From positions 32,001 to 96,000 of IMG/VR virus record IMGVR_UViG_3300032291_002524: a stretch of 64,000 nucleotides of DNA. The stretch is one strand, 5' to 3'. The translations under genes were made by a program, and so were the position numbers. Below are positions 13,349 through 46,784 of this stretch, piece by piece; positions within the stretch are counted from its first letter, which is position 1; each line of letters opens with the position of its first letter. The notes under the pieces were generated by a model that was given only the letters and a program-made list of their open reading frames with translations, made no database searches and had not been told where the DNA came from. The DNA comes from a virus.

Positions 13349-13506
13349 AATATTATTATTTTTGTTTATATTTTTTTTTCAGGTTTACTAAAACCGTGCC
13401 AAAAGATTTTTGTATGGAAAAAATGACATAATGTCGTATTATCATTATTTTATACTGACATATTGTCATGTTGATTATCTAAAAATTAATTTTATATTTG
13501 TGGTGT

Positions 13507-15567
13507 ATGATAGATTTTGACGATAATCAAGAAGCAGGAAAGAAGAAAACTTCCAAATCAGAAAATACGGGAAGTTCAACCCCCGTTTTAGATAATTTTT
13601 CTCGTGATTTAATTAAATTGGCATCCGAAGGTAAATTAGACCCCGTTATTGGTCGAGATATTGAAATTAATAGACTTGCCCAAATTATATCAAGGAGAAA
13701 GAAAAATAACCCAATATTAATCGGTGAGCCCGGTTGTGGAAAAACAGCTGTGGTTGAAGGATTGGCCATCAAAATTTTTGAAGGTAATTGCCCTCAAAAT
13801 TTGTTAGATAAACGAATTGTTAGTTTGGATATGACATCAATCGTTGCAGGTACCAAATATCGTGGTCAATTTGAAGAACGTTTAAAAGTTATTTTAGATG
13901 AACTTCGAGATAATCATGAAACCATTGTGTTTATTGATGAAATTCACACAATTATAGGTGCGGGTAATTCTTCGGGGTCACTTGACGCATCCAACATCTT
14001 TAAACCTGCACTTGCACGTGGAGAACTCCAATGTATCGGAGCAACAACCTTGGACGAATATCGGGAACATATTGAAAAGGACGGAGCATTGGAAAGACGG
14101 TTCCAAAAGGTTTTAGTTGAACCATCTTCAATTGAAGATACAATCACAATCCTAATGAGAGCCAAGGAAAACTATGAAAAACACCATAAAGTTTTCTTCA
14201 GTGAAGAATCAATTAAAGCATGTGTTCATTTGGCCGATAGGTATATAACTGACCGAAGTTTTCCTGATAAAGCAATTGATATCATGGATGAAGTCGGAGC
14301 TCGTAGTCAAATCGCTGTTAAATTACCGGAAGTTATTGAACAGTTAAAAGAAGAAGCTGAAAAAATAAAACAGAGTAAGTTAGATGTTGTTAGAAATCAG
14401 AGATTTGAGGAAGCCGCAGAACTTCGTGACCGTGAACGAAAAGTGTTAAAACAATTACAAGAAGAAAAAGAAAAGTTTGAAAATGACCGTTTAACAAATA
14501 AAAAACTTGTCGATGAGAACATGGTGTATGAAGTGGTTGCATCAATGACAAAGATACCAATCACCAAATTGACACAGTCAGAATCAGAATCACTACTTCA
14601 ATTAGAACAAAATTTACAAAATTCAGTTATTGGTCAAGATGATGCTGTTAGTAAAATTGCAAAGGCAATCCGACGAAATCGTGTTGGGATTAAAGAACCT
14701 AACAAACCAATTGGTTCATTTATTTTTCTTGGGTCCACAGGTATTGGTAAAACCCATTTGGCTAAACAATTAGCAAAAGAAGTTTTTGGTGATTCGGACG
14801 CATTAATTCGAATGGATATGTCAGAATATCAAGAAAAATTTACAATGTCTCGTTTGATTGGTTCACCTCCGGGTTATGTTGGATTTAATGAAGGAGGTCA
14901 ATTGACTGAACAGGTTAGAAATAAACCATATTCGGTAATATTATTTGACGAAATCGAAAAGGCCCATAAAGATATCTTCACTTTATTGTTACAAACAATG
15001 GACGAAGGGTTCTTAACCGATAGTAATGGTAGAAAAATTAATTTCAAAAATACCGTTATTATTATGACATCTAACATTGGTGCTAGAAAAGTTCAAGAAT
15101 TCGGTGCTGGTGTTGGTTTTGGCACAAGTGCTAAAATGGATAAAGAACTTGAAATAAAGAAAATGGCAGTAGAGGATGAACTGAAGAAGTTTTTCCCACC
15201 TGAATTTATAAATCGTGTTGATGATATTGTATTCTTTAATTCATTAAAAGAAGATGAAGTGAATCAGATTGTTAAAATTGAATTATCAAAATTAACCAAC
15301 AGACTTTCATCTATGAACTATAAAATCGAAATAGGTGACGAAATGTTGAAACATATTTGTGAAATTGGTTTCGATGAAAAGTTTGGGGCCAGACCTATTA
15401 AAAGAGCAATTCAAAGTCAAATTGAAGACTTTATTTCCGATGAAATATTAAAAGGTAATTTAATCACTGATATTGAATATACTGTGGATTATATAGATGG
15501 TTCACCTTTATTAATAACCAAAGATTCAAAACCGAAACGAGTAAAGAAAAAGAAAGAAACTGAATAA
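13507..15567 (+). CDS. clpC: ClpC-like AAA+ chaperone lacking the N-domain
   Basis: GEPGCGKT, IVFIDEIH, UVR middle domain, GSTGIGKT, LFDEIEKAH, GVGF ClpP-docking loop, GARPIKR. Confidence 0.93.
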   Translation: MIDFDDNQEAGKKKTSKSENTGSSTPVLDNFSRDLIKLASEGKLDPVIGRDIEINRLAQIISRRKKNNPILIGEPGCGKTAVVEGLAIKIFEGNCPQNLLDKRIVSLDMTSIVAGTKYRGQFEERLKVILDELRDNHETIVFIDEIHTIIGAGNSSGSLDASNIFKPALARGELQCIGATTLDEYREHIEKDGALERRFQKVLVEPSSIEDTITILMRAKENYEKHHKVFFSEESIKACVHLADRYITDRSFPDKAIDIMDEVGARSQIAVKLPEVIEQLKEEAEKIKQSKLDVVRNQRFEEAAELRDRERKVLKQLQEEKEKFENDRLTNKKLVDENMVYEVVASMTKIPITKLTQSESESLLQLEQNLQNSVIGQDDAVSKIAKAIRRNRVGIKEPNKPIGSFIFLGSTGIGKTHLAKQLAKEVFGDSDALIRMDMSEYQEKFTMSRLIGSPPGYVGFNEGGQLTEQVRNKPYSVILFDEIEKAHKDIFTLLLQTMDEGFLTDSNGRKINFKNTVIIMTSNIGARKVQEFGAGVGFGTSAKMDKELEIKKMAVEDELKKFFPPEFINRVDDIVFFNSLKEDEVNQIVKIELSKLTNRLSSMNYKIEIGDEMLKHICEIGFDEKFGARPIKRAIQSQIEDFISDEILKGNLITDIEYTVDYIDGSPLLITKDSKPKRVKKKKETE

Positions 15568-18693: not shown

Positions 18694-18725
18694 TTTGGAA
18701 GTTTAATAAAGTATTTATATATTTG
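18694..18725 (+). promoter_or_regulatory. Bacteroidota sigmaA-type promoter for the tmRNA unit
   Basis: TTTG (18694) N20 TATATTTG (18718-18725). Confidence 0.75.
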
Positions 18726-18818
18726 TATAAGAAATCACGGGTGGCTCCCTTAATAGTTAAGGCTGACCTTAAGCATCTGACGTTATGTCTATACAGGGGG
18801 CGAAAGTGATTTTCATAA

Positions 18819-18833: not shown

Positions 18834-19216
18834 GGGGATGACACAGAATTGATTGGCGTGGTTAGTCAATTGGTGCACGTATGAGCTGAATTAACTCATT
18901 AAAAACTGATTTAAAAACACAAACGGCAACGTTTTAAATAAAATGGCTGCTTGCGGTTTAATCCGTGAAGACGCTGCTGTTGTAGCTTAATCAGCACAAC
19001 ACACTCAGGTCGGGGGACATATAACCTAGGAACAGAAGTCTTTAGAGGTGTGGTTTCTATCTTAAAAGAAACAAGTGGAGGATTAGTTCTCAGTAAACCG
19101 AACCACTATAAAATAAGGGAATTGTGAATTTCGGAACATTAGCAAATGTTGACCTAAACGTGTAGGACCTTTTGGTTAAGACGAACAAGACCGCGGGGCA
19201 GTGCCGCGCATCTCCA
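18834..19216 (+). ncRNA. ssrA: tmRNA
   Basis: acceptor GGGGAUG/CAUCUCC-A with G3.U70; T-arm CGCGG-GGCAGUG-CCGCG; tag ORF 18925-18990 GNVLNKMAACGLIREDAAVVA*. Confidence 0.9.
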
Positions 19217-19270
19217 GGCTCACAATTGAATACCTCCACGTGGTGTGAGCTGGGTAACGCTAAATTCAAT
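19217..19270 (+). ncRNA. minimal HDV-like (theta) self-cleaving ribozyme
   Basis: P1 GGCUCAC/GUGAGCU (G.U at the cleavage site), P2 AUUGAAU/AUUCAAU, P3 ACC/GGU, L3 UCCACGU, P1.1 GG, minimal P4, J4/2 GCUAA. Confidence 0.85.
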
Positions 19271-19297
19271 AATCATTACAGTTATTAATTAAAAATT

Positions 19298-19328
19298 AAA
19301 GTGGTCAAATTCGACCACTTTTTTTTTG
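19298..19328 (+). terminator. intrinsic terminator after tmRNA/ribozyme
   Basis: AAAGTGGTC-AAATTC-GACCACTTTTTTTTT. Confidence 0.8.
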
Positions 19329-19376
19329 TGCATTTAAAATCTATTTAGTATCTTTGTATTACTAAACACCACCACT

Positions 19377-20114
19377 ATGAACACAATCATTAAACACAAC
19401 ACAAGAGTAAGAAATTACAACGGGCAAAACGATTTTATCCGTAAAATGAAAGAAGTTGTATATCAGTACGGAGGATTAACAGAAAAACAAGCATTGGCAG
19501 TTGAAAAGGCACTTAGTGAGAAAACAAATGTCGATACTCGTTCCTTACCAGATAATCTAAAATCGATTGCCGATTATTCGGGGGATAATGTATTCGTGTT
19601 GGATGTTAAAAGTAAATTCCTTAAATATGGTACTTTAACAGATGCCCAAGTATCTGCGGCGAATAAACAAATTAAAAAAGAAGACGAATCAAAACAACGT
19701 ATTGATGTCAATATTGATGTGATTGGTGAAACAGTAATTGTTGGTCGAAACACGGGTGAAAAGTTGAAGAAAGATAAAGGTTTAAATTTTAACCCTGTTC
19801 TATTGGATATTACCGAAGTTATGACCTTAACTGCTAAGGCAATTAAATTTAAAGGTAAATTAACAACTAAAAACGGTAACATTTGTAAGTCTTGCGGACG
19901 AGTATTAACTGATGAATTTTCACGGTTAACGGGTTATGGTAAGACTTGTGCGAAACATTTGGGTGTTGAATATATTAAAGACGAATCTGAAGTTGAGCGT
20001 TTTAATCAGGAAGCACTTCAAAAAGTTGAAGAAATTGGTGAAATGGAATTTTGGGTTCCTCGTCGTCAAATCAAAGTATGGAATGGTGAAAGTGCAATTT
20101 TAATGAAAATGTAA
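19377..20114 (+). CDS. hypothetical protein with DUF6011-like Zn motif
   Basis: CKSCGRVLTDEFSRLTGYGKTCA. Confidence 0.7.
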   Translation: MNTIIKHNTRVRNYNGQNDFIRKMKEVVYQYGGLTEKQALAVEKALSEKTNVDTRSLPDNLKSIADYSGDNVFVLDVKSKFLKYGTLTDAQVSAANKQIKKEDESKQRIDVNIDVIGETVIVGRNTGEKLKKDKGLNFNPVLLDITEVMTLTAKAIKFKGKLTTKNGNICKSCGRVLTDEFSRLTGYGKTCAKHLGVEYIKDESEVERFNQEALQKVEEIGEMEFWVPRRQIKVWNGESAILMKM

Positions 20115-28671: not shown

Positions 28672-29322
28672 ATGAAATTAGTTTTAAAACCAGGACAAAA
28701 ATTATTTTTTACCAGTGATACGCATTATAATCACTCAAATATTTGTCGAGCGACCACAAATTGGGTTGGTTCTGAAAATTTGACTCGTGATTTTAAATCT
28801 TTGGAGCACATGAATTCAACTTTGGTTAATAATATTAATGAAGTTGTTGGTGAAGATGATATTTTAATCCACTTGGGAGACTGGTCTTTCGGCGGATTTG
28901 AACAAATTGAAGAATTTAGAAATAAAATCTTGTGTAAGAATATTCATTTGATTTATGGTAATCATGACCATCACATTAGAAGAAATAAAGAAAATATTCA
29001 ACGATTATTTTCTTCAACCCAAGATTATTTAAATCTTGATTTAAGAATTCCTAATGGGAAAAATACTGATAAATTAACATTAGTTTGTATGCACTACCCA
29101 ATCGCAAGTTGGGACAGCATGAACAACGGTGTTATACATTTACACGGTCACGTTCACTTACCACCAAACCTGAGAATTGCGGAAGGTAGAGCCATGGATG
29201 TCGGTGTTGATGGTAATAACCTATATCCAATTTCGATTCAAGAAATCAAATCTTTAATGAAAGGTAGACCGGTTAAAAAATTGGTTTTACCGAAAGACCA
29301 TCACGAAACAAATAATAAATAA
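28672..29322 (+). CDS. calcineurin-like metallophosphoesterase
   Basis: SDTH, HLGD, GNHD, HGHVH, DVGVD. Confidence 0.9.
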   Translation: MKLVLKPGQKLFFTSDTHYNHSNICRATTNWVGSENLTRDFKSLEHMNSTLVNNINEVVGEDDILIHLGDWSFGGFEQIEEFRNKILCKNIHLIYGNHDHHIRRNKENIQRLFSSTQDYLNLDLRIPNGKNTDKLTLVCMHYPIASWDSMNNGVIHLHGHVHLPPNLRIAEGRAMDVGVDGNNLYPISIQEIKSLMKGRPVKKLVLPKDHHETNNK

Positions 29323-29334
29323 TAAAATTAAAAC

Positions 29335-29754
29335 ATGGAAAATATCACAAACGATAAAGTAATTATACTATTGCGTGGAATTCCTGGCTCGGGCAAATCC
29401 ACTATAGCTAAAATGATTGTGGGAAATGAAAAAGAGTACCGTCACAAAGAAGCTGACATGTATTTTGTTGACGAAAATGGTGATTATAAGTTTAAACCAA
29501 GTCAAATAAGAGATGCTCATCAATGGTGTCAAGAAAGTGTTGATTTTTTAATGAGTCATTCTCATTCCCCTGTCGTGGTATCAAACACATTCACACAAGA
29601 ATGGGAAATGGAACCATATTACAAAATGGCTGAAAAGTATGGTTATAGAGTTCACTCACTAATTGTTGAAAACCGCCACGGTGGTATAAATGAACACGGT
29701 GTTCCTGAAGACAAGTTACAAGCGATGAGAGACCGATTTGAAGTAAAATTATAA
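29335..29754 (+). CDS. P-loop polynucleotide kinase-like protein (AAA_33)
   Basis: RGIPGSGKST, EADMYF, VVVSNTF, HGVP. Confidence 0.85.
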   Translation: MENITNDKVIILLRGIPGSGKSTIAKMIVGNEKEYRHKEADMYFVDENGDYKFKPSQIRDAHQWCQESVDFLMSHSHSPVVVSNTFTQEWEMEPYYKMAEKYGYRVHSLIVENRHGGINEHGVPEDKLQAMRDRFEVKL

Positions 29755-30180: not shown

Positions 30181-30861
30181 ATGAACAATACAGATTTTAA
30201 AAACTATTTTACCAAACACTTGGGTAAAGGCTCATTAATGTTGGATTATTACAACCAAAGAATTGAAGATTCGATGACACCTTATATTTTGGAAGAAAGA
30301 GAGATGAGAGTGACCCAGATGGATATTTTTTCACGATTAATGAGGGACCGTTTACTATGGGTGGCGGGGCCTGTTGATGATAACATGTCCACAGTTGTCC
30401 AAGCACAATTAATGTATTTAGATTCGGTTAATAATATGGACATAACGATGCACATTGATTCGCCAGGTGGCTCTGTTAAATCCGGTTTATCGATGATTGA
30501 CGTTATGGATTATATATCATGTGATATTCACACCATTAATACCGGTATGGCAGCATCCATGGGTTCCGTGTTGTTAGGCGCTGGAACCAAAGGTAAACGT
30601 TCGTCTTTAAGATTTTCACGTACCATGTTACACCAATCTTCAGGGGGTTTCCGTGGAAATATCCAAGACGCTAAGATTGATATGATTGAGTGGGAGAAAG
30701 TGAATAAGATTTTATTTGATTTGTTAGGTTCATATTGTGATAAATCGGCAGAACAAGTAATGGAAGACGCTTCTCGTGACCTGTGGTTAGATTCCAAATC
30801 TGCGTTAGAATACGGAATTATTGACGAAATTATTACATCAAAAAATAAAATGAAAAAATAA
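30181..30861 (+). CDS. clpP: ClpP protease subunit
   Basis: MDIFSRLMRDR, IDSPGGSV, GMAASMGS, MLHQ, RDLWL. Confidence 0.95.
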   Translation: MNNTDFKNYFTKHLGKGSLMLDYYNQRIEDSMTPYILEEREMRVTQMDIFSRLMRDRLLWVAGPVDDNMSTVVQAQLMYLDSVNNMDITMHIDSPGGSVKSGLSMIDVMDYISCDIHTINTGMAASMGSVLLGAGTKGKRSSLRFSRTMLHQSSGGFRGNIQDAKIDMIEWEKVNKILFDLLGSYCDKSAEQVMEDASRDLWLDSKSALEYGIIDEIITSKNKMKK

Positions 30862-32482: not shown

Positions 32483-33502
32483 ATGGATTTAAACACCCTA
32501 AATAGATATTATGAAGATGGTTTACTTTACAAACAAGTACACCCAACACTTCCATTAACCATTTGGAACTATACAGAAAAAGTTCAATATAATGGTTTAT
32601 GGGATGAAATCACATTGTCCTGTCGTGGATTAGTAACCGATAATCTTGGTAATATTGTTGCAAGACCATTTAAAAAGTTCTTTAATCTTGAAGAGGGTAA
32701 ACACACACCGACACAAGATTTTGAAGTTTTCGAAAAAATGGACGGTTCAATGGGTATAATGTTCAAATACTCAGGTGAAACAATATTTGCAACTCGAGGG
32801 TCGTTCATTTCTGAACAATCAAAATGGATGTCCGATTTTGCAACCACCTATAATTATCAAGACATCATTGTCGATGGATTCACTTATTTATTTGAAATTA
32901 TATATGAAAACAATAGGATTGTTGTCGATTACGGTAACCAAGAAAGATTAGTATTATTAGGGATTATCAATACTGAAACAGGTGAAGAACTACCATATAA
33001 CGATATTTATTCTGATGGTTGGGATATTGTTCAAAGATATGACGGAATTAAAGATTATTCTAATTTAAAGAATCTTGTTGAAGCTAATCATGAAGGATTC
33101 GTCATTCGTTTTTCTAATGGGGACCGAATGAAAATTAAGGGTGAAGAATATATTCGTCTTCACAGAATTATGACTAATTTATCAACAACTTCAATATGGG
33201 ACGTATTGTCTAATGGTGGTAATATGGAAAATTTACTTATAAATGTTCCAGATGAGTTTTATAATAAAATTAAGGAATATGAAGATGAACTTAAGTTTAT
33301 GTTTAACTCATTGAGTAATGATTATTGGATTCATTTTAGAGACATTCAAAATTTGATGGAAAAAGTTGGTGGTGACCGTAAGAACTTTGCTCACGCAGCA
33401 AAACAATATCAGTACCCATCATTGTTGTTTGGTCTATTGGATGGTAAAGATGTTTCACCTATTATTTGGAAAATTATTAAACCTGAATTTAAAAAATTAT
33501 AA
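32483..33502 (+). CDS. RNA ligase 1 (T4 RnlA-like)
   Basis: CRGLV...ARPFKKFFN, EKMDGS, ATRGSF, FEII, EGFVI, KIKGEEY. Confidence 0.9.
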   Translation: MDLNTLNRYYEDGLLYKQVHPTLPLTIWNYTEKVQYNGLWDEITLSCRGLVTDNLGNIVARPFKKFFNLEEGKHTPTQDFEVFEKMDGSMGIMFKYSGETIFATRGSFISEQSKWMSDFATTYNYQDIIVDGFTYLFEIIYENNRIVVDYGNQERLVLLGIINTETGEELPYNDIYSDGWDIVQRYDGIKDYSNLKNLVEANHEGFVIRFSNGDRMKIKGEEYIRLHRIMTNLSTTSIWDVLSNGGNMENLLINVPDEFYNKIKEYEDELKFMFNSLSNDYWIHFRDIQNLMEKVGGDRKNFAHAAKQYQYPSLLFGLLDGKDVSPIIWKIIKPEFKKL

Positions 33503-39843: not shown

Positions 39844-40536
39844 ATGAAAATAACATTTATTTCCGACACACATAATAAACATAAACAACTAAATGGTCTA
39901 TTACCAGGTGGTGACATGATTATTCACGCGGGTGATATGTCAGGTATGGGATATAAACACGAAATTCAACAATTTTTAAAGTGGTATAATAATTTAGATA
40001 ATTACACTCATAAGGTGTTTATCGCTGGTAACCATGATTGGGGATTTCAAACCGAACCCAAAATGTGTAAAGAACAATTGGATTTTTACGATAAGGTAAC
40101 ATACATCCAAGATAACACAAAATTAATCGGTAATGAACATCAAACACCTGTTAAAGTTTATGGTTCTCCATGGCAACCTGAGTTTTATGATTGGGCATTT
40201 AACTTACCAAGAATGGGTTGGGAATTAGAACAAAAGTGGAATGATATTCCATTAGATACTGATATTTTAATTACACACGGACCTGCTTGGGGTCACTTAG
40301 ACACAGTTAAAAGTTTAGGTGTTCCTTTGGGTTGTGAATTATTATCAGAAAGAATTAAAGTTGTTAAACCTAAAATTCACGTTTGTGGTCATATCCATAC
40401 GGGATATGGTTATAAATTTGATGGTGATACCCACTATTTTAATGCTGCGGTATTAGATGAGCAATATAATTTAACTCAAAAACCATTCACCGTGGAATGG
40501 AATCCTGAAACTAATGAAATCGAATTTATAGATTAA
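39844..40536 (+). CDS. metallophosphoesterase
   Basis: SDTH, HAGD, AGNHD, THGP, CGHIH. Confidence 0.9.
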   Translation: MKITFISDTHNKHKQLNGLLPGGDMIIHAGDMSGMGYKHEIQQFLKWYNNLDNYTHKVFIAGNHDWGFQTEPKMCKEQLDFYDKVTYIQDNTKLIGNEHQTPVKVYGSPWQPEFYDWAFNLPRMGWELEQKWNDIPLDTDILITHGPAWGHLDTVKSLGVPLGCELLSERIKVVKPKIHVCGHIHTGYGYKFDGDTHYFNAAVLDEQYNLTQKPFTVEWNPETNEIEFID

Positions 40537-41136: not shown

Positions 41137-41565
41137 ATGAAAATGAAAAAATTATACTTGGACGATGTTAGAATACCTCGTCATTCATATCCGGCAATGT
41201 CAAGAAGAATTGGTTCAGATTCTGCCATATATCAAAATGATGATTGGAATATTGTTAGGACATATGATGAATTTGTAAATTGGATTAGTGAAAATGGGTT
41301 ACCTGATATTGTGTCATTCGACCACGACTTGGCGGATGAACACATTCAATATTATTTTGATAATGGTGGTAACGCAAACCCACCTGACCCCCAAAAAACA
41401 ACTTTTGAGGAAAAAACGGGGTATGATTGTGCTAAATGGTTGGTAGATTATTGTGTTAAAACGCAACAAAAATTACCTGAATATTTGGTTCATTCTGCAA
41501 ATCCTGTTGGTGGATATAATATCTTGACGTATCTAAACAACGCAAAAAAACACACGAACATCTAA
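41137..41565 (+). CDS. cyclic-phosphate-processing receiver-domain protein
   Basis: KLYLDDVRIP, VSFDHDL, TGYDCAKWL, HSANPVG motifs. Confidence 0.8.
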   Translation: MKMKKLYLDDVRIPRHSYPAMSRRIGSDSAIYQNDDWNIVRTYDEFVNWISENGLPDIVSFDHDLADEHIQYYFDNGGNANPPDPQKTTFEEKTGYDCAKWLVDYCVKTQQKLPEYLVHSANPVGGYNILTYLNNAKKHTNI

Positions 41566-42080: not shown

Positions 42081-42153
42081 GGGGTAGTGGCAGATGAGGT
42101 CATTGCGACGGACTGAAAATCCGTAGGAACAGGCTCGATACCTGTCTACCCCA
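42081..42153 (+). tRNA. tRNA-Phe(GAA)
   Basis: cloverleaf; anticodon arm ACGGA-CTGAAAA-TCCGT. Confidence 0.85.
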
Positions 42154-46314: not shown

Positions 46315-46427
46315 AGTCAGGTGGCGGAATGGTAGACGCTTAAGGTCATAAGGTATAGTACATAGCTCCGTATTAAAGAGTCAGTTGCCGAATCTATACC
46401 ATACAGGTTCGAATCCTGTCTTGACTG
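46315..46427 (+). ncRNA. tRNA-Leu-like scaffold A (63-nt insert)
   Basis: AGTCAGGTGGCGGAATGGTAGACGC...ACAGGTTCGAATCCTGTCTTGACT. Confidence 0.75.
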
Positions 46428-46563: not shown

Positions 46564-46641
46564 AGTCAGGTGGCGGAATGGATAGACGCAACCACATAAG
46601 TGGTCAAACCGGTACTACAGGTTCGAATCCTGTCCTGACTA
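46564..46641 (+). ncRNA. tRNA-Leu-like scaffold B (27-nt insert)
   Basis: same arms; insert hairpin ACCAC-ATAA-GTGGT. Confidence 0.75.
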
Positions 46642-46784
46642 CGCTCCTTTCTGGCGTTTTTAACAATAGGACGTGGTACAGATGCACCAGATGGATGTAC
46701 CAACCCAGCATCAGGGACTTGGCAAGTTTTCGGTAGCCAATCAGATGTAACCGATGACAGCTCGGAAAGTACGAGCAATATACC

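Follow-up and report, generated by a model that had tools for sequence, protein, structure and literature searches.

The locus analyzed here raises the question of how a phage tmRNA that is not followed by an encoded CCA acquires its 3' end when a small HDV-like ribozyme begins at the very next base. The window, by which we mean the whole stretch of 64,000 nucleotides that was analyzed, comprises bases 32001-96000 of a 106,315-bp IMG/VR virus record with a G+C content of 30%. CheckV rated the completeness of the record at 34%, indicating that the phage genome is probably about 300 kb in size; the fragment carries about 30 tRNA genes. A blastn search of deposited phage genomes returned no match. 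Positions 19106-19450 gave an uninterrupted match, with 0 differences, to one contig of a DNA sequencing run, and this run may be the source sample.

The tmRNA gene and its flanking signals

We recovered the tmRNA by a local search with the Rfam model RF00023 (18834-19217, 47.2 bits against a cut-off of 47, E = 1.9e-17); it went unreported in the cut-off search of the whole window and in the search of its own genome. ARAGORN called no tmRNA on the window or on the local stretch, which is probably a false negative due to the unusual T-loop, a departure from the usual UUCGA-type loop. Seven of the nine clade tmRNAs have the odd T-loop, and the usual loop is present in L139 and L135. The first-pass annotation had ended the tmRNA at discriminator A19216 without CCA, and this reading stands: the tmRNA model ends there and GGC follows directly, so that CCA is not encoded. 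The Rfam alignment sets the resume codon at the tag start at 18925, and the tag of the phage exceeds the usual bacterial tags in length and has a different end.

Five distinct relatives, found via the downstream gene, hold a tmRNA at 81-88% identity to that of the window. The G3.U pair was invariant in the six-sequence alignment, compensatory changes were present at acceptor pairs 5 and 6 and at four of the five T-stem pairs, and 26 of the 95 predicted tmRNA pairs covaried. The tag frame and its 21-codon length were kept in all six sequences, with changes that were mostly synonymous or conservative. Judged on these sequence patterns, the RNA at 18834-19216 is a real tmRNA. A search for SmpB (PF01668) found no match in the 106-kb record (34% complete), and SmpB is expected to be supplied by the host. 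Upstream of the tmRNA, at a distance of 3 kb, the phage encodes a two-domain Clp ATPase (AAA_2, ClpB_D2-small; 13498-15567), and 11 kb downstream of it a ClpP protease (30181-30861); with the tmRNA, these proteins may give the phage a tagging and degradation set of its own.

The tmRNA lies between a promoter-like site and an intrinsic terminator (Table 1). We take the TTTG and TAnnTTTG boxes at 18694-18725 to be a Bacteroidota-type promoter, and on the strength of these boxes the host would presumably belong to the Bacteroidota. Relatives without a ribozyme retain the terminator, with its start 3-10 nt past the tmRNA end. The conserved leader is near-identical in L134 (about 2410-2495), is absent from L139 and has no match in Rfam. 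A copy in the distant relative L179 (443-527, 97.7% identity over 87 nt) precedes tRNA genes rather than a tmRNA, and a lake metatranscriptome contig holds the leader at high depth in a different context. The leader is a separate element and no part of the ribozyme finding.

Table 1. Features of the tmRNA-ribozyme locus and candidate end-healing genes, in window coordinates
Feature	Position	Strand	Remarks
Promoter-like site	TTTG 18694-18697; TAnnTTTG box 18718-18725	+	Box conserved in L134
Conserved leader element	18731-18814	+	84 nt, 5' of tmRNA
Phage tmRNA	18834-19216	+	383 nt; RF00023
Acceptor stem	18834-18840 / 19209-19215	+	G3.U; discriminator A19216
Tag reading frame	18925-18990	+	Resume codon GGC, 21 codons, then stop
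T-arm	19193-19197 / 19205-19209	+	T-loop 19198-19204 unusual
Predicted scissile bond	19216/19217	+	3' of discriminator A19216, 5' of G19217 (P1 start)
Theta-type minimal HDV-like ribozyme (type A)	19217-19270	+	54 nt; published layout matched segment by segment
P1	19217-19223 / 19245-19251	+	7 bp, sequence read directly
J1/2	A19224	+	Sequence read directly
P2	19225-19231 / 19264-19270	+	7 bp
P3	19232-19234 / 19242-19244	+	3 bp, inside P1
L3	19235-19241	+	7 nt
P1.1	C19236, C19237 with G19253, G19252	+	Two pairs, L3 to bases after P1
L4	19254-19259	+	6-nt linker; loop, no real P4 helix
J4/2	19260-19263	+	Starts with C19260
Candidate catalytic cytosine	C19260	+	First base of J4/2, equivalent of HDV C75
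AT-rich spacer	19271-19297	+	Between ribozyme and terminator
Intrinsic terminator	19298-19330	+	9-bp stem, 6-nt loop, T run
Metallophosphoesterase	28672-29322		Pfam, weak match
P-loop kinase (AAA_33)	29335-29754		Pfam
Rnl1-type RNA ligase	32483-33502		Pfam
Metallophosphoesterase	39844-40536		Pfam
Cyclic-phosphate-processing receiver (cREC_REC) domain protein	41137-41565		Pfam

Fold of the ribozyme and its published relatives

The sequence that follows the discriminator reads as a nested double pseudoknot, in which P1 and P2 cross and P3 lies within P1. All helices and the pseudoknot listed by the first-pass annotation were present when the sequence was read directly, and the alignments of two Rfam models start at 19217. 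The core is complete: P1 has the G19217.U19251 wobble at its base, the P1.1 pairs are present, L3 has its U and G, and C19260 is in place. The earlier proposal that C19260 is the candidate catalytic base gained support, since a C occupies the first J4/2 position in all 12 tmRNA-linked ribozymes (segments parsed directly). The C19260 column was also nearly invariant in a MAFFT alignment of 30 ribozymes; P1 is misplaced in that alignment, and pair counts were taken instead from direct segment parsing. The ‘minimal P4’ of the earlier description has been abandoned because the published layout makes 19254-19259 a 6-nt linker.

When the local stretch was searched against Rfam with E-values reported, drz-agam-1 (RF01787) scored 31.8 bits (E = 2.7e-4) and HDV-F-prausnitzii (RF02682) 27.5 bits (E = 6.7e-3), both short of their cut-offs of 37 and 44 bits; a P4 helix is part of both models. 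Rfam release 15 returned no match to a theta model. At gathering cut-offs, the whole-window Rfam search listed neither the tmRNA nor the ribozyme, and the local E-value search recovered both. A strict structural descriptor returned 19217-19270 as the sole credible match in the 64-kb window, and Rfam gave no other HDV-like match in the rest of the 106-kb record. We also ran a relaxed descriptor on the 106-kb record, but it yielded noise only and was dropped. Folding of the motif in its context retained both the P1-P3 hairpin and the terminator. In a context fold that omitted the 5' strand of the tmRNA, the last three tmRNA bases were predicted to be able to pair just 3' of P1; according to this model, such pairing could slow folding of the ribozyme while the acceptor stem is open.

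Theta ribozymes are minimal HDV-like ribozymes that adjoin tRNA genes of Caudoviricetes phages (Kienbeck et al. 2024, PMC10879173). The four that were tested all self-cleaved in vitro, and removal of tRNA 3' trailers was proposed from this cleavage and from position, without in-vivo evidence (PMC10879173); the first-pass annotation, which had called trailer trimming established, overstated the case. The first base of J4/2 was defined as the catalytic residue, a cytosine, and the supplementary lists print every ribozyme split into descriptor segments (PMC10879173). The layout of the entries is P1 (6-7), J1/2 (1-3), P2 (7), P3 (3), U, CC, four L3 bases, P3', P1', GG, L4 (about 6-8), J4/2 from C, and P2'. 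The window ribozyme parses as 7/1/7/3/1/2/4/3/7/2/6/4/7, with the same segments and fixed bases as the listed theta entries. Entry 3051 of Supplementary Data File 2 (PMC10879173), a non-tRNA-associated ribozyme with three occurrences, is a one-base variant of it that has G-C in place of the G.U wobble at the last base of the P1 3' strand.

The published screen for tRNA association used tRNAscan-SE only, and the tRNA-associated subclass was limited to ribozymes with a cut site no more than 5 nt from the 3' end of a tRNA called by that program (PMC10879173). Because the upstream gene is a tmRNA and no tRNA ends there, the window ribozyme is ‘non-tRNA-associated’ by this rule. Neither the text nor the supplements searched mention tmRNA (PMC10879173). 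A natural tmRNA-ribozyme fusion did not come up in our search of the literature on tmRNA in connection with theta, HDV-like or self-cleaving ribozymes; papers that pair tmRNA with HDV are apparently concerned with methods, structure prediction or unrelated matters, and none of them suggests a natural fusion. The ribozyme thus belongs to a known class and its sequence is not new, and its substrate, tmRNA, is unreported in the literature searched. The earlier remark that the tmRNA context had not been described holds in the literature searched; the ribozyme itself is listed bar one base.

The published theta ribozymes and that of the window have in common the layout, the conserved bases and a cut that abuts the discriminator of a CCA-less, tRNA-like acceptor stem; the former release a tRNA, whereas the latter would release a tmRNA. 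More than 80% of theta ribozymes were reported from gut phages (PMC10879173). In contrast, relatives of the window tmRNA are apparently aquatic and were found in lake, estuary and aquatic RNA libraries, as contigs that hold conserved tmRNA parts only. The HDV-F-prausnitzii and drz-agam-1 families have the nested double-pseudoknot core in common with the window ribozyme but possess a real P4 helix, which it lacks. In the laboratory, in-vitro transcripts are given exact ends by appending an HDV ribozyme; such fusions follow the same design, need no upstream sequence and cut at the first base of the ribozyme; these are engineered, whereas the tmRNA-ribozyme of the window is a natural gene arrangement.

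Recurrence and proposed exchange of ribozyme-linked tmRNA ends

We scanned IMG/VR for the conserved theta core, allowing two L3 variants, and kept matches with a 6-7-bp P1. The matches listed comprised 197 ribozymes with 116 distinct sequences; 49 of the distinct sequences abut a tRNA, eight a tmRNA and 57 neither, and two had too little upstream sequence. The tmRNA-linked share is roughly estimated at 7% (8/116 distinct sequences among the matches listed). At least eight further distinct tmRNA-ribozyme junctions were present in unrelated phage contigs. RF00023 scores above the cut-off were obtained at L010 (82.4 bits), L117 (72.4), L269 (70.3), L110 (65.6), L063 (64.7), L053 (64.3), L233 (63.4), L014 (56.3) and L282 (54.3), and CCA is not encoded at any of these junctions; for nine of the junctions other than that of the window the tmRNA scores ranged from 51.9 to 82.4 bits. 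The cut site lies immediately after a discriminator A in all 12 tmRNA-ribozyme junctions, which backs the earlier prediction that the ribozyme makes the tmRNA 3' end. The sequences of P1 and P2 vary among the 12 junctions and yet always pair.

The ribozyme of L014 is identical to entry 1761 (PMC10879173), the eighth entry of the non-tRNA-associated list with 504 occurrences, so the published orphan class is at least partly tmRNA-linked. Only one of six abundant published orphan ribozymes, entry 1754, was among the collected loci, and no tmRNA adjoins it.

We considered an RNA of about 325 nt in L041 as a tmRNA, but it was called by neither Rfam nor ARAGORN and was not counted. In this contig (oriented minus strand, cut site after 3167), a tRNA-like acceptor stem and T-arm, with an odd T-loop of a type similar to that of the window clade, are followed directly 3' by a theta ribozyme; the RNA may be a divergent tmRNA or another tRNA-like RNA. 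Three unrelated viral contigs have a GOLLD RNA (>320 bits) at a distance of 1-3 kb from the tmRNA that ends in a ribozyme (L063:269-682, L233:11355-11762 and L282:8537-8946). In many contigs of one large metagenome, theta-core matches occur in same-strand pairs with a spacing of about 2.66-2.72 kb (L222, L224, L227, L241, L250, L259, L267, L278, L283 and L286), which suggests a repeated unit that contains the ribozyme.

Closer to the window, the ribozyme is absent from all five relatives found via the flanking gene (L139, L135, L134, L133 and L136). In the alignment, these sequences have a clean gap of about 76 nt after the discriminator and before the terminator that they share with the window, equivalent to window positions 19217 to about 19292. 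CCA is encoded in L139 and L135; L134, L133 and L136 have CTT or CTA instead. The exact ribozyme A had no match in viral or metagenome contigs, and the pattern of the clade tmRNA end had no match in viral contigs. A search of metagenome contigs for the clade tmRNA end followed by GG gave 28 matches, of which 25 arose by chance and three, L346, L331 and L349, are members of the clade. The motif search 3' of the tmRNA in relatives that had been put forward by the first-pass annotation thus returned ribozymes in these three and none in the other five.

The L346 ribozyme is type A and differs from that of the window by a C-G to U.G change in P1, one extra A in J1/2 and one L4 base, all of them structure-neutral; it scored 27.7 bits with drz-agam-1 (Rfam). 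At the same bond, L331 and L349 have a theta-type ribozyme of another kind (type B), which differs from type A in P1 and P3 and has a longer P4. Two P2 pairs are changed on both sides between L331 and L349 (compensatory), and HDV-F-prausnitzii was matched at the cut site with 32.9 and 41.2 bits, respectively (Rfam). In four further viral contigs, a ribozyme with the type B core is located 3' of a tRNA-Asn.

The clade therefore has four forms of tmRNA 3' end, namely encoded CCA, no CCA, ribozyme A (window, L346) and ribozyme B (L331, L349). In the tmRNA tree, L133 (no ribozyme), L349 (B) and L346 (A) form a tight, well-supported cluster with branches of about 0.01, and the window falls in another subclade, among CCA-encoding and CCA-less members. 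The window and L346 have the ribozyme in common but not the downstream DNA; the window and L133 have the downstream DNA in common but not the ribozyme. Since three near-identical tmRNAs, which are about 1% apart, have three different ends, the ribozyme behaves as a swappable cassette, and the simplest reading of these sequences would be an exchangeable cassette at the discriminator boundary. The flanking-gene tree suggested a single gain on the window branch, which is compatible with the cassette reading but too simple given the metagenome relatives and the tmRNA tree. We propose only tentatively that the cassette moves among tRNA-like genes and that the mode of making the tmRNA end turns over fast, possibly driven by conflict.

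Maturation of the tmRNA end and competing explanations

HDV-type ribozymes cut between position -1 and G1, immediately 5' of P1, and leave a 2',3'-cyclic phosphate (PMC6277466), so the start of P1 at 19217 predicts a cut between A19216 and G19217. A single transcript would run from a promoter near 18694-18725 through the leader, tmRNA and ribozyme to the terminator at 19298-19330. Once transcribed, 19217-19270 would fold into the nested double pseudoknot and cut at its own 5' edge, freeing a tmRNA that ends at A19216, while the ribozyme and the terminator hairpin would be discarded. By the chemistry of the ribozyme class, the released end would be a 2',3'-cyclic phosphate, which a phosphoesterase would have to open and remove; this could be one of the phage enzymes encoded in the window or an enzyme of the host. 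A host CCA-adding enzyme would then add CCA and make the tmRNA chargeable with alanine, and the 5' end would presumably be made by RNase P. We place the probability that a co-transcriptional ribozyme cut after A19216 makes the tmRNA 3' end at roughly 80%; from this reading we infer cleavage in vivo, healing, CCA addition and replacement of the host RNase route used by the relatives.

The 3' ends of bacterial tmRNA and of CCA-less tRNAs are made by protein RNases, followed by CCA addition. L134, L133 and L136 presumably use this protein route, which reaches the same end product by a cut after the discriminator and then CCA. The protein route leaves a 3'-OH, whereas the cut in the window would be made by RNA in cis and leave a cyclic phosphate, so that an extra healing step would be needed. 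In the ribozyme-less relatives, CCA or a short trailer precedes the same terminator, indicating that the ribozyme sits where 3' processing must occur; the existence of these five relatives also means that the ribozyme is not indispensable.

Most tRNAs of the phage lack an encoded CCA, so CCA-adding activity is needed anyway. No CCA-adding enzyme (PolyA_pol) was found in the 106-kb record (34% complete), and since the record covers only about a third of the genome, the missing PolyA_pol and SmpB permit no conclusion. The window encodes several candidate healing and repair proteins (Table 1), any of which might act on the tmRNA. The cREC_REC gene ends about 500 nt before a tRNA array that starts at 42081. 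No theta ribozyme follows any of the approximately 30 tRNA genes of this array (42081-62099); about eight of them encode CCA, and in most others the tRNA is followed by C and a run of A. The tRNA call at 46564-46642 carries no anticodon assignment, and an Rfam tRNA match at 46315-46427 spans 113 nt.

Ribozyme cleavage at the discriminator has to be weighed against other explanations of the locus. That the motif is a chance look-alike, or a dead relic that does not cleave, is extremely improbable: the MFE fold of the 54 nt alone was no better than that of shuffles (z = -0.37) and the Rfam ribozyme scores are under their cut-offs, but the energy model is blind to pseudoknots, which makes the z-score uninformative. 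The core residues are intact, the homologous copy in L346 differs by structure-neutral changes only, and chance is excluded by the match of 19 fixed bases and 14 base pairs on one particular phosphodiester bond. We regard as improbable that the upstream RNA is no longer a tmRNA but a decoy or other tRNA-like RNA, with the ribozyme releasing an RNA of a different role. The invariant G3.U, the covarying acceptor and T stems, the kept length of the tag frame with mostly synonymous changes and the canonical T-loop of two clade members all argue for a tmRNA, against a non-canonical T-loop with rejection by ARAGORN, an Rfam score just at the cut-off and no smpB seen in the 106-kb record (34% complete).

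If the tmRNA matured equally well via host RNase Z and exonucleases, the ribozyme could be a dispensable hitch-hiker, a self-excising and exchangeable cassette that adds no fitness. The five related sequences without a ribozyme, the near-identical tmRNA trio with none, type A and type B, and the sharing of the cassette but not of the downstream DNA by the window and L346 would all agree with this explanation, but a neutral insert would have no need to start at the discriminator. Exact placement in 12 independent junctions, together with helices that show compensatory changes, speaks in favour of selection for a precise cut at this bond, and we consider a hitch-hiker unlikely. The cleavage product itself suggests a licensing gate, in which the cyclic-phosphate end that HDV-type cleavage leaves (PMC6277466) would block charging until phage healing enzymes are made and would so time trans-translation during infection. 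The metallophosphoesterases of the window and the cREC_REC protein near the tRNA array would suit such a gate, but it is pure inference, and the healing genes could equally well serve to repair tRNAs that host anticodon nucleases have cleaved. Host HD-domain CCA-adding enzymes, moreover, can open cyclic-phosphate ends, which counts against a gate; we rate the gate as very improbable.

On the main reading, in which a theta-type ribozyme makes the tmRNA 3' end, some of the numerous ‘orphan’ theta ribozymes have a definite function, namely the ending of tmRNAs. Ribozyme-made 3' ends would then occur not just on tRNAs but also on the ribosome-rescue RNA and, apparently, not just in gut phages but also in large aquatic phages. 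If the tentative proposal of a moving cassette is true, self-cleaving ribozymes would spread among tRNA-like genes through recombination at the discriminator boundary, and the making of tmRNA ends would turn over fast, for example as an escape from dependence on host RNases. The clade is a natural experiment in which one tmRNA occurs with, without and with two different ribozymes; since the same tmRNA exists in these forms, it can be tested directly what the ribozyme contributes and what becomes of the cyclic-phosphate end.
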